64,000 nt of DNA, taken from positions 32,001 through 96,000 of the IMG/VR virus record IMGVR_UViG_3300028048_000038; one strand, written 5' to 3'. Under the pieces are notes generated by a model. The model saw only the letters and a list, made by a program, of their open reading frames with translations. It searched no databases and had not been told where the DNA came from. The translations under genes were made by a program, and so were the position numbers. This document shows, piece by piece, positions 13,966 through 16,286 of the stretch (positions within the stretch are counted from its first letter, which is position 1; each line of letters begins with the position of its first letter). Source of the stretch: a virus. Lineage: Duplodnaviria > Caudoviricetes.

Positions 13966-14277
13966 TTAACAATCATAAACTGCAACTTCACCAATAGGCT
14001 GTGAGAAATCCCCTAAATGGTCTGTGAGCGTTAAAATCTCTGCATCTACTGCAAGGGCTTCACGCAAGAACTCTGCATACTCTTCATCACCCTCTGAATG
14101 TGCATCAGCAATCCATACATTAACCATTTCGCTGTCCACATCTTCTAAGGTGTAATTACCAACCTTGCGTTTGTTGTTCCTTACCATATCAACAGCAAGG
14201 TCATGTTGTTCCTCGGACAAATCGAATGTCTCAATTCGATAACTATTGCCCATACTTGAAATTCTTCTCATATTCAT
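13966..14277 (-). CDS. hypothetical acidic protein
   Basis: Promoter at 14299. Confidence 0.7.
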   Translation of the reverse strand: MNMRRISSMGNSYRIETFDLSEEQHDLAVDMVRNNKRKVGNYTLEDVDSEMVNVWIADAHSEGDEEYAEFLREALAVDAEILTLTDHLGDFSQPIGEVAVYDC

Positions 14278-14455
14278 TTATCTTTTTTGTTTTGACAATG
14301 CAAAGATACGAAAAAATAACGAATCTACCAAATTTTTTATGTTAAAAAACACAAATGGGGCAATGTCTCACGACATCACCCCATCAAAACTAAAAACCTA
14401 ACAATTCAAATTATGGAAAACAAAGAGCGTTACCACAACGCAAAACGAGCATAAG

Positions 14456-14542
14456 TGCAACCCAGTAGGACTCGAACCTACGGCATACGAGCACACAAGA
14501 TGTAAACATCGGCACGATTTCTACCAACTGAATTATGGGCGC
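14456..14542 (-). ncRNA. pseudo-tRNA / tRNA mimic with remodelled anticodon region
   Basis: Canonical D-loop AGTTGGTAGA and T-arm GTAGG-TTCGAGT-CCTAC; bulged acceptor GCGCCCA/TGGGTTGC; no 7-nt anticodon loop. Confidence 0.7.
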
Positions 14543-14548
14543 ATTTTG

Positions 14549-14631
14549 TACCCTATACTGAATCGAATCAATCTATCACACAACCATTGAACGTTTTAAT
14601 TATGCAACGTATGTCAGTCTTGATATAGGGC
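14549..14631 (-). ncRNA. tRNA-like RNA (7-bp acceptor and T-like arm)
   Basis: GCCCTAT/ATAGGGT stem, ATTGA-TTCGAT-TCAGT arm, central ACGTT/AACGT hairpin. Confidence 0.5.
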
Positions 14632-14682
14632 ATTACTATAGATTATCCCAATCTTAACCACATCATAGGGCATGTTAAAATT

Positions 14683-14785
14683 GTGAGGTGGAACACGTCC
14701 AAAGTCCCATGATGGCAAAGGCGAGTGCAACTTAATGCAGCGCAGTTCGGCATCCCAAACTTGAGACGTATCGAATCCACCTCAC
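14683..14785 (-). ncRNA. rod-shaped RNA of about 103 nt
   Basis: GTGAGGTGGA/TCCACCTCAC, ACGTC/GACGT and TGCA/TGCA nested stems. Confidence 0.6.
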
Positions 14786-15585
14786 TTGTTTCCCACACCT
14801 TTAGTAGCAAATCCACTCAGCATATAATCTCACTCGGTCGTTGGGTGGTCGCTGTGGGTAGGGTTGATACACAACTTATTTTTTGAGTGTAGGGGAGTTC
14901 TATAGACGAAATCGGCATAACTCCCTCGCTGACACTCGCAGCAGTGTTGAGGGCGGTGGTGGTGCGAACTCTGTTGGTCGCATCCCTAATGCCCCATGAA
15001 AAAGAACGACTTATAACCAAAGAACACAGCATTTGCATACCGCAGTCTTTATACCCCCTCAGAAATGTGCGCACGTTGAGGGGTGCTGGCTGAACTTCCA
15101 TCGTTCTAATATGTTACCCACGCTTCTAACGGACAGCCGTGAACGCAGCCTATTGGCAGTTTGGCAGCGTAAGAATCGAATTTCGGCAGATAACTCGCCC
15201 AAGGAAAATCGACACTCTATTATTGGTGCAGATGTGGGCGAAACATAAGCGTTTAAGGGCTTAAAGTTTTCGTATTTCTATTATTATTTTTAGTCGAATG
15301 ACCTTGCCAAGCCATGCACATTGACATGGGTAGAGGCGGTAATAAATTCTTACTTAGGGTCGGTCTCTAATCATTACTTGTCTCTTTTCTTATATAATAT
15401 ATTCTAATAATCCAGTGCTAAAAATTTAATAAATCCCTTACATGGGCGGAGGTCGTTCCATTATTTCTTTCTTTTTAGGTGAGGGTATCGCAACCCTCGT
15501 TACTAATTCTGATGCAAAGGTACGAAATTTTTTTGAACTGACCAAACTTTTTCGGTGTTTTAACTTCGTTTAACCTTTGAGAAAA

Positions 15586-15782
15586 TTAGGTAGGGTTTCC
15601 CCAATCTTGGTACTGACTTGCCACCATCACAAGTTAAACTGACCAGTCGCTATGGTTTGTTTTATCCCCTACCTAAGAAACGGCATTGGGGTGGTGGAGG
15701 TACGGGCTTCGGAAAAATACCTACTATTACCAGACCTATAACAGCGCAATCGCTTACCACCTTTGCCCCTACGAGGTAGCCG
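15586..15782 (-). ncRNA. two structured RNA modules downstream of a small ORF
   Basis: TTAGGTAGGG/CCCTACCTAA closing stem (15586-15676); CGGC/GCCG and AGGTA/TACCT stems (15681-15782). Confidence 0.5.
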
Positions 15783-15956
15783 TTACTTCAACTTCTTAAT
15801 CTTATAGAGTTGAATAGTCTCTACTTGAGGCTTTCCATCCTTATCAAGAACGTTCTGTCCGTCTCGGTCAAGGATAGGAATCTCTTTCTTCTTCGAGGGC
15901 ATTGCTACCACTCGGTTGTTTCGAATCGCTCGATTGAGTTTCTTCTGTCCACTCAT
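15783..15956 (-). CDS. small basic protein, 57 aa (MSGQKKLNRAIRNN...)
   Basis: Manual translation; promoter at 16003; A-rich leader. Confidence 0.65.
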   Translation of the reverse strand: MSGQKKLNRAIRNNRVVAMPSKKKEIPILDRDGQNVLDKDGKPQVETIQLYKIKKLK

Positions 15957-16070
15957 TTTGCTTTTACCTTTTTATTATTAATACTTTGTTAATGTTTCAC
16001 GATGCAAAGATACGAAAATTTTTTGAAACTACCAAATTTTTTTGTAGAAATTTACAACCATTAACATTCG

Positions 16071-16286
16071 TTAGCAATTACCTTGCTGACTCTCAAGAAA
16101 GTCTTCCACCTCAATGGTTTCTTTGATGTCAGTTTCCAACTTATCATCGTCAATGTCGCCATCATAACGATAATCGTCAAGGCACTTGCCTCTCAATTCA
16201 CATACAAACTCGCCATCATCTGTGACATCAAGTCCATCAATGGTTTCTGTCACAATGTACCCCAATTCTGTTTCGTATGTACCCAT
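16071..16286 (-). CDS. hypothetical highly acidic protein
   Basis: D/E-rich 71-aa ORF. Confidence 0.7.
   Translation of the reverse strand: MGTYETELGYIVTETIDGLDVTDDGEFVCELRGKCLDDYRYDGDIDDDKLETDIKETIEVEDFLESQQGNC

Follow-up and report, generated by a model that had tools for sequence, protein, structure and literature searches.

A probable composite RNA family with peptide-conserved micro-ORFs and an exchangeable interior in a rumen jumbo phage

What does a bacteriophage make from more than a kilobase of DNA that is framed by its own promoter and terminator and in which no ordinary protein gene can be discerned? The question is raised by a locus in the IMG/VR virus record IMGVR_UViG_3300028048_000038 (Duplodnaviria; Caudoviricetes), a sequence of 409,537 bp with inverted terminal repeats. 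Bases 32001-96000 of this record, a stretch of 64,000 nucleotides, constitute the window that was analysed and to which coordinates refer unless otherwise indicated. An initial annotation of the window had described positions 15508 to 14355, read on the minus strand, as an operon of discrete structured RNA modules joined by short linkers. Our analysis makes it reasonably probable that this locus is a non-protein-coding unit of a 409.5-kb rumen jumbo phage, served by host-type Bacteroidota promoters, and that it represents a previously undescribed composite phage RNA family.

Both bounds proposed in that annotation, a promoter at 15513 and a terminator at 14355, were found as described. The promoter module (15513..15545, minus strand) carries TAccTTTG at 15522-15515 and TTTG about 20 nt further upstream, an arrangement which we take to be the Bacteroidota housekeeping promoter consensus; its core, TTCGTAcCTTTGCA, occupies 15526-15513, and the sequence suggests a transcript start near 15508. 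At the opposite end, an intrinsic terminator (14344..14385, minus strand) has a stem of 14 pairs (14385-14354) and behind it a T run, the stem being clade-specific in sequence and keeping its self-complementarity. GC content rises from about 0.35 in the surroundings to 0.47-0.49 in the stretch, where the strand skew that characterises the flanking genes is lost and GC skew is close to zero.

Does this stretch encode a protein? Open reading frames (ORFs) longer than 99 amino acids are absent from its six frames, even with TAA, TAG or TGA reassigned. A 94-aa ORF at 14817..15101, named in the initial annotation as a possible coding sequence to be checked, was tried and rejected as a gene: compared with its closest relative (83% identity) it shows 9/8/6 substitutions at the three codon positions, and thus no codon-position bias, its frame is broken by indels of 1, 2, 14, 5, 1, 1 and 1 nt, its weak tblastn matches lie in differing frames, and it has no Pfam or PADLOC family. 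Neither does the stretch correspond to an RNA family known to Rfam, as had been anticipated. In cmscan searches GOLLD and ROOL gave no match, whether at the gathering score over the 64 kb, with E values of up to 10 across 14000-16100, or among 13 related loci, the sole Rfam match in the stretch being a sub-threshold tRNA at 14461-14539. No ToxI-like tandem repeats were found within 14200-16100, Pfam, PHROGs and PADLOC returned no matches for the neighbouring proteins and no defence family among them, and blastn and megablast of the region and 16 kb around it retrieved no match from 50,697 phage records.

What do related units show? Ten syntenic units were collected from IMG/VR contigs through a neighbouring 185-aa protein, and 73 rumen metagenome loci through a 24-mer from the 3' tail of the unit; in total, there are 81 distinct related units, of which 53 are full-length (465-1255 nt). 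BLAST and nhmmer found only the two ends to be common to all of them: promoter, leader and a first micro-ORF at one side, tail and terminator at the other. Between these ends the 53 full units display 20 module architectures, with modules gained and lost independently. Modules M1 to M6 occur in 14, 8, 8, 7, 6 and 17 units, respectively, a long rod in 17, a tRNA-like unit 1 in 12 and a hairpin with a palindromic loop in 38; short units may run from micro-ORF 1 through M6 and a rod to a T-arm remnant, or from two micro-ORFs through M1 to a tRNA. Every module except one (U2, see below) is single-copy in the genome. This natural exchange of modules, together with the covariation of several helices described below, bears out the 'beads on a string' layout that the initial annotation had drawn from one sequence. 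A pattern scan of IMG/VR for the core of the unit (AAGUU..palindrome..GUUwwrrG) returned only this phage group and two further contigs and, as far as these scans reach, the family is confined to one group of rumen phages. Three matches to the pattern of the upstream ORFs (L023, L026 and L029) were discarded as chance occurrences in GC-rich unrelated contigs.

Is the unit made as RNA? Four metatranscriptome runs, from two samples and two studies, contain the stretch with identical sequence, and the depth of their RNA contigs over 14.7-15.3 kb is 116 (X2), 93 (X3), 89 (X4) and 47 (X7) versus 3-21 over the flanking genes in the same runs. Since DNA contamination would give even depth, these values indicate that the unit is transcribed, as had been proposed, into an abundant RNA. 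The high-depth contig of X2 ends at 14379, inside the terminator stem. Another RNA contig spans 14829-16051 and so covers two further modules, U1 and U2, and a 57-aa gene lying upstream, which fits with co-expression of the upstream modules and the unit. The DNA and RNA runs holding the stretch derive from bovine, goat and sheep gut, and the abundance of the RNA in rumen metatranscriptomes makes it probably important in the jumbo-phage infection of rumen Bacteroidota.

What, then, does the conserved 5' end specify? Micro-ORF 1 (15438..15461, minus strand), encoding MERPPPM-stop with the consensus MERPPP(x)-stop, is placed behind an A-rich, unstructured leader, a context in which Bacteroidota, largely devoid of Shine-Dalgarno pairing, commonly initiate translation. 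Comparison of the units shows that variation among its 18 core nucleotides is limited to positions 6, 7, 9, 12, 15 and 18 (GAA/GAG; CGA/AGA/CGC/CGT; CCT/CCA/CCG; CCG/CCC; CCC/CCT), and eight out of eight substitution types are synonymous. Since 14 of the 54 possible single changes in this ORF are synonymous, chance would give this result with a probability of about 2e-5. No constraint is seen on the codon after PPP, and the stop follows 0-1 codon past PPP in nearly all units; L139, the most distant of the members found, has lost this ATG and has instead a new one, in frame and three codons upstream, which yields MNSNERPPP-stop. Micro-ORF 2 (15354..15374, minus strand), encoding MIRDRP-stop with the consensus M(x)xRDRP(x)-stop, is present in 45 of the 53 units. 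Its ATG is always in frame, 1-2 codons before RDRP (a 3-nt indel), and its stop comes 0-1 codon, rarely 3, after the proline, L139 having MIRDRPN-stop. Both micro-ORFs are unique in the genome, and both peptides, one of them with three prolines, end in Pro or Pro-X before the stop; Pro-rich or Pro-stop peptide ends slow elongation and termination. The two ORFs are conserved at the peptide level and, judged by this pattern, they are probably translated. The earlier statement that no credible protein gene exists here therefore stands as regards longer ORFs, but the presence of two micro-ORFs under peptide-level selection, overlooked in that annotation, means that the unit is not wholly non-coding. 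A literature search found nothing relevant on the string MERPPP, and a general one on structured RNAs of huge phages nothing specific.

Which parts of the interior fold? Folding of the 586-nt core yields a minimum free energy of -186 kcal/mol versus -169 +/- 5.8 for shuffled sequences (z -2.9; better than 99 of 100 shuffles). The core domain (15003..15107, minus strand) is composed of helix Pa (AGAACGA/UCGUUCU, 15107-15101 with 15009-15003), the junction AAGUU, hairpin Pc and the junction GGUUAUAAG. At least seven versions of Pa occur, each with mutually complementary strands; cognate strands pair over 5.9 bp on average, non-cognate ones over 3.4 bp. In 28 sequences AAGUU and GUU(U)A(U/G)AG, the words at the junctions, show little or no variation. 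Pc (15055..15083, minus strand), the most widespread core module, combines one loop with 15 distinct closing stems. In a gap-free alignment of 12 sequences its four inner pairs are 100% paired, three of them showing 2-3 pair types, and its covariation of 0.66 versus 0.25 +/- 0.06 was reached by none of 500 shuffles, slid registers falling far below. The 15-nt loop, A(C/U)GUGCGCACAwwUC, contains an 8-nt palindrome, GUGCGCAC, at 15074-15067, which the initial annotation had not noted; it cannot pair inside its own loop and is kept in nearly all of the 38 units with this hairpin, at least as UGCGCA in 38/38. Because the palindromic loops of ROOL, GOLLD and OLE form symmetric kissing contacts, the core RNA may by analogy self-associate into dimers or multimers through symmetric kissing of this loop. 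A conserved CUGCGCUG of the rod (14740-14760) is also complementary over 5 nt to GCGCA of the Pc loop (15067-15074), so that an intramolecular loop-helix contact is an alternative to the kissing dimer.

Around this domain, the remaining modules show structural conservation of different kinds. The 5' terminal hairpin GAGGGU-loop-ACCCUC (15481..15498, minus strand) is replaced at the same place in relatives by UUGGGG..CCCAA, its pairing being thus kept through two-sided changes. M6 (14791..14874, minus strand) consists of helix P1 (CyCACA/UGUGrG), helix P2 (rGC/GCy) and a variable hairpin, and has as conserved parts a 5' tail, UUGUGnAUCAACCCUA, and a bulge, ACUAAAGG. In 18 distinct sequences 144 of 144 cells are paired, three pairs are changed on both sides, and covariation is 0.20 versus 0.10 +/- 0.016, a value reached by none of 500 shuffles; its inner hairpin is swapped wholesale in relatives. 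M1 (15297..15365, minus strand) contains the hairpin CCCAUG..CAUGG and a stem formed by CCUCUA and codons 2-3 of micro-ORF 2. M2 (15116..15255, minus strand) is a multi-stem domain closed by ACGCUU/AAGCGU, whose consensus fold for seven relatives comprises 28 pairs with one-sided G-U changes only. M4 (14945..14998, minus strand) is a hairpin GGGGC../..GCCC(U) into the tip of which relatives insert a whole extra hairpin, a structure-preserving indel. M5 (14881..14942, minus strand), the hairpin GAGUGU..GGGAGUU/AACUCCC..ACACUC, has one pair changed on both sides in its consensus fold for four relatives. The rod, which had been placed at 14683-14785, was recovered as an irregular hairpin at 14677..14786 (minus strand) closed by GUGAGGUGG/CCACCUCAC, with 36 pairs and -37.7 kcal/mol in the consensus of five relatives; rods of more distant units have other complementary closings, such as GUGCGAGGGG/CCCCUUGCAC and GCAAGCGAGA/UCUCGCUUGC. 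M2, M4, M5 and the rod fold consistently, but they occur in close relatives only, so that their support comes from conservation with G-U changes, one double change and one hairpin insertion at a loop tip. RNAalifold on plain MAFFT alignments of the whole unit, the core domain or the tail gave empty or trivial structures, because the helices are out of register between clades, and anchored analyses were used instead. The stems quoted in the initial annotation (ACGCTT/AAGCGT, TCGCCCA/TGGGCGA, AGAACGA/TCGTTCT, CCCCTCA/TGAGGGG, GAGTGT/ACACTC and GGGAGTT/AACTCCC) are all present and recur in the consensus folds with relatives.

What occupies the slot between these modules and the tail? Two tRNA-like units are found in it, in agreement with the first reading of the sequence. 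Unit 1 (14546..14633, minus strand), conserved in the 12 units mentioned above, has an acceptor-like stem and a T-arm (loop UUCGAUU) without D arm or anticodon arm, and is not called a tRNA by ARAGORN or Rfam. Unit 2 (14456..14542, minus strand) combines canonical D and T loops with a 25-nt anticodon region containing a mini-hairpin and with an imperfect acceptor stem; positions 14461-14539 score 21.6 bits with the Rfam tRNA model (RF00005) versus a threshold of 29, and ARAGORN makes no call. Its homologue in L063 reaches 32 bits, and L062 and L063 keep the mini-hairpin via a two-sided change (CGAGG/CCUCU versus CGAUG/CAUCU). Occupants of the slot in relatives include tRNA-Gln, Lys, Val, Tyr, His, Phe, Ile and a UUA suppressor, 28 of the 53 units having no recognisable tRNA there. 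Ten units carry an element that scores well as a tRNA (40-43 bits, Rfam) and whose anticodon loop is abnormal, labelled 'CCAA' by ARAGORN and drawable with 8 nt or 6 nt (L010:4162-4236, L012:7704-7777, L014:3758-3831, L015:7955-8029 and six metagenome loci); this element is a natural tRNA of the quadruplet or frameshift type, or else a look-alike that does not decode. CCA is not encoded at the slot. What the slot keeps is the shape recognised by RNase P, RNase Z and the CCA enzyme, not decoding, and since this shape persists without decoding the slot may serve as punctuation, or as a decoy. As a separate observation, GCCCUAU occurs twice (at about 14655 and 14630) upstream of a single AUAGGGU (at about 14555), an arrangement conserved in L057, L042, L086 and L035; tRNA-like unit 1 could thus be closed by either of two stems that exclude each other, which makes them a potential switch.

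And what does the conserved 3' end do? Directly 3' of the slot stands a trailer hairpin, GCGUU-loop-AACGC (14427..14441, minus strand), with an invariant stem and a variable loop, and next to it a 38-nt block (14390..14427, minus strand) that is invariant in most units. The block is identical in nine of the ten units found through the neighbouring protein, with flanks 65-80% identical; L008 has two changes, and the distant L139 a 3-nt deletion mid-block. It holds the complement of a start-codon region (..UUUUCCAUAAUUU..) and corresponds to the 'anti-start seed' of the initial annotation. A tail that begins where a tRNA(-like) element ends, includes a conserved unpaired segment and finishes in an intrinsic terminator has the layout of a small RNA (sRNA) derived from a tRNA trailer. 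The best phage partner of the tail is the initiation region of a 257-aa gene (dG -31.4 versus -24.3 +/- 2.2 kcal/mol for shuffled seeds), whose leader and first five codons (MENKE) are complementary to it over about 26 nt; this leader is identical in one related genome and indel-shifted, as is the seed, in another. The 257-aa protein has no known family, is encoded at G000:C1:234209-234982 on the minus strand (L104:310-1083), and is conserved in two related 412-kb phages. A host target was sought by scanning 185,579 prokaryote genomes with a 20-mer and rejected: none of the 31 matches extends past the 20-mer. They include starts of unrelated MENK.. genes, one of them fabZ-like in a metagenome-assembled genome of a rumen Bacteroidales (L115), and their number is roughly as chance gives, so they provide no evidence for a host target.

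The surroundings of the unit repeat some of its features. The two additional modules that had been noted at 15586..15782 (minus strand) are real and conserved, and lie in the 3' part of the unit of the preceding 57-aa gene. U1 (about 15687-15769) contains a long-range helix that covaries (GGUGG/CCACC, GAGGG/CCCUC, GGGGG/CCCCC, GGGAG/CUCCC), and U2 (about 15586-15686) is closed by GGUAGG/CCUACC and has conserved AUAAAACAAACCAUAGCGAAUGG and CCAAGAUUGGGGAAACC. A second copy of U2 lies at G000:C1:27831-27941, outside the window and on the opposite strand, and because U2 is also found inside the L011 unit it appears to be another mobile RNA module; L011, L012 and L014 have no promoter between U2 and micro-ORF 1. 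Directly upstream of U1/U2, at 15783-15956 on the minus strand, a very basic 57-aa ORF (MSGQKKLNRAIRNNRV..) is conserved in relatives and matches no family in Pfam, PHROGs or PADLOC; its product is a candidate RNA-binding partner. Nearly all genes of the window are on the minus strand, each small gene with its own copy of the promoter module. This module, of 35-45 nt, recurs 8-12 times per 12-kb related locus, that is about once per kb, and flanks every unit. The 409.5-kb record encodes 46 tRNAs, with a main tRNA island at 124-165 kb. Among its tRNAs ARAGORN reports several with 6-nt anticodon loops and one with anticodon CUA (an amber suppressor, labelled 'Pyl') at G000:C1:136577-136653, outside the window; the CUA tRNA and the odd tRNAs are hints of stop-codon recoding in part of the genome.

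How could these parts work together? In a composite RNA of this kind, the tRNA-like elements would be cutting signals for RNase P and RNase Z, releasing the structured core and the tail sRNA; the palindromic loops would kiss symmetrically, so that the core dimerises or multimerises as ROOL and GOLLD do; ribosomes pausing on the Pro-stop micro-ORFs might protect and stabilise the RNA or set its folding, a stabiliser role proposed by analogy; and the conserved tail could act by base pairing with a start-codon region or by protein binding. It is tempting to speculate further on a ribosome-engaging, self-assembling RNA device, in which parked ribosomes license accumulation and folding of the core, the core multimerises, and the tRNA-like element and the modules are cargo or adaptors exchanged among phages, set between fixed ends, namely the promoter with the MERPPP ORF and the conserved tail. 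We regard this extension as quite improbable; if true, it would represent a cassette system of RNA genes and the first large ornate RNA with translation-coupled biogenesis.

Several observations weigh against the composite-RNA interpretation. The RNA data consist of assembled contigs, which show neither strand nor ends, and contig ends disagree between runs and so do not indicate processing sites. Since a fifth to a quarter of the units are without the core, none of the interior modules is by itself indispensable to the unit. Covariation is weak in M1, whose sequence is nearly invariant among close relatives, and is likewise weak or absent in M2 and the rod, because only close relatives carry these modules. 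The palindrome, which is what the predicted oligomerisation is argued from, shows no covariation and shrinks from 8 to 6 nt in two members. The stabiliser role of stalled ribosomes is carried over from Firmicutes to a Bacteroidota host. Finally, the best target of the tail is only about 3 standard deviations better than shuffles, and two related genomes in which the tail is retained lack the 257-aa gene.

Could the structured region instead be a regulator in cis? A leader-peptide attenuator, in which the micro-ORFs sense proline, arginine or EF-P and alternative folds gate transcription into the tRNA(-like) gene and the tail sRNA, would make the structured region cis-regulatory and not itself a product. 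Two tandem short ORFs, one with three consecutive Pro codons, do lie 5' of a long structured leader, an arrangement with precedent in tandem attenuators containing a PPP ORF (PMC3641672, PMC5299641); micro-ORF 2 overlaps a stem with M1, and the duplicated GCCCUAU before tRNA-like unit 1 could pair alternatively. However, from the micro-ORFs to the tRNA slot the window contains no hairpin resembling a terminator and carrying a U run, other candidates lying only at the tail, and 300-900 nt of interchangeable interior, with modules that covary as stable folds, exceed what attenuation needs. Moreover, the core itself is the most abundant part in the RNA contigs, and the 'cargo' to be gated is mostly a non-decodable tRNA look-alike. 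We accordingly judge an attenuator unlikely.

The turnover of modules and of the tRNA slot, abnormal anticodon loops included, between otherwise syntenic phages is fast, and this lends itself to an arms-race view. Here, as in the initial annotation, which had proposed early-expressed RNA decoys or antitoxin mimics against host defences, modules and tRNA look-alikes would act as decoys, engaging defence or RNA-handling proteins of the host, for instance anticodon nucleases, CRISPR effectors or toxins. The abundance of the RNA, a host-type promoter that probably implies early expression and the retention of the tRNA elbow (D and T loops) in elements that have lost the anticodon would all suit such a role. 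Yet no resemblance to any known decoy was found, CRISPR-repeat-like or ToxI-like tandem units are lacking and no defence-related neighbour protein was detected. Decoys would also leave the peptide conservation of the micro-ORFs and the conserved tail unexplained, and we hold this explanation to be rather doubtful.

A further view, with very little in its favour overall, places the activity in the micro-ORFs as toxic minigenes of the lambda bar type, a kind defined by 2-8 codons: Arg/Pro-rich ORFs of 6-8 codons would cause peptidyl-tRNA drop-off and drain host tRNA-Arg and tRNA-Pro, the phage meanwhile providing tRNAs of its own and the remaining RNA serving stability. The micro-ORFs have this length, contain AGA/CGA as well as CCN codons and have Pro or Pro-X last before their stops, AGA-containing minigenes of 3-8 codons are known to sequester tRNA (PMC2490762), the transcript is abundant, and the genome encodes tRNA-Arg(UCU, ACG, CCU) and two tRNA-Pro(UGG) among its tRNAs. 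Against this, it is the amino-acid sequence that is conserved and not codon usage alone, which suggests a role for the peptide, and the interchangeable use of CGA, AGA, CGC or CGT for the arginine of micro-ORF 1 argues against the targeting of one isoacceptor; the conserved RNA modules are also left unexplained. That the locus is as a whole a functionless, decaying tRNA-island remnant or set of small-protein genes, as degenerate tRNA-like units and many chance short ORFs could suggest, has a negligible likelihood and is already largely refuted by covarying helices, a 38-nt tail identical in 9/10 units, peptide-level selection on the micro-ORFs, an abundant RNA, and longer ORFs with frame-breaking indels and no codon-position bias.

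How does the proposed composite RNA compare with known systems? Unlike the type III antitoxin ToxI, whose tandem direct repeats adjoin an endoribonuclease toxin gene, it has no tandem repeats in 14200-16100, and its neighbours are without PADLOC or Pfam family. The stable RNAs C and D of phage T4 (species 1 and 2) are co-transcribed with phage tRNAs and released by tRNA-processing enzymes. They are, however, single units of 80-140 nt amid working tRNAs, whereas here about 900 nt of modules precede one mostly non-decoding slot and leader ORFs are added. The tail resembles the sRNAs cut from tRNA 3' trailers, such as the 3'ETS of the E. coli glyW-cysT-leuZ operon, in starting at a tRNA(-like) 3' end and in having a conserved unpaired stretch and an intrinsic terminator; it differs from them in that the conserved stretch, with 38 nt, is far longer than a usual seed and that the target is a candidate only.

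The 5' end invites two other comparisons. C-terminal Pro-Pro or Asp-Pro before a stop slows termination. As in ermC-type 5' stabilisers, a ribosome held near the 5' end may protect the downstream RNA, an effect established for RNAs with ribosomes stalled near their 5' ends (PMC3997798). Such ermC-type or Pro-stop effects are known for mRNAs of Firmicutes and E. coli, whereas the one considered here is putative and concerns a non-coding RNA in a Bacteroidota host. The long, structured mgtCBR leader of Salmonella likewise has two short ORFs, mgtM and mgtP, one of which contains three Pro codons in a row; translation of this PPP ORF depends on EF-P and Pro-tRNA (PMC3641672, PMC5299641). In contrast to our unit, in which neither a protein gene nor a terminator/antiterminator pair was found, mgtM/mgtP control protein genes via such a pair.

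The closest likeness is to ROOL and GOLLD, which are RNAs of phages or prophages, encoded near tRNA islands, that multimerise via symmetric palindromic kissing loops among other contacts; in OLE, too, chains kiss symmetrically through conserved palindromic loops, and ribosomes are bound by GOLLD in pull-downs (PMC12286853). Like them, the unit is a large structured, phage-encoded RNA associated with tRNA genes, with a tRNA slot inside it, as GOLLD sometimes contains tRNAs, with a palindrome in a 15-nt loop as a prerequisite for kissing, and with the rumen as a habitat shared with ROOL. Unlike them, it is a variable chain of modules instead of one conserved fold, without a covariance-model match, it has micro-ORFs at its 5' end and a conserved tail at its 3' end, and its oligomerisation is predicted from the palindrome. 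Few phage products are as poorly understood as large structured RNAs of the GOLLD and ROOL kind, and this family adds handles that those lack: peptide-conserved micro-ORFs tie the RNA to the ribosome, about 50 natural mix-and-match variants show separable parts, with minimal versions of about 350 nt that suit structure work, and a nearly invariant tail should point to a conserved partner. Furthermore, the turnover of its tRNA look-alikes, including those with abnormal anticodon loops, bears on why phages carry non-decoding tRNA-like genes. The locus works most like ROOL and GOLLD and belongs to neither, its micro-ORFs, mosaic interior and conserved tail setting the family apart from both.

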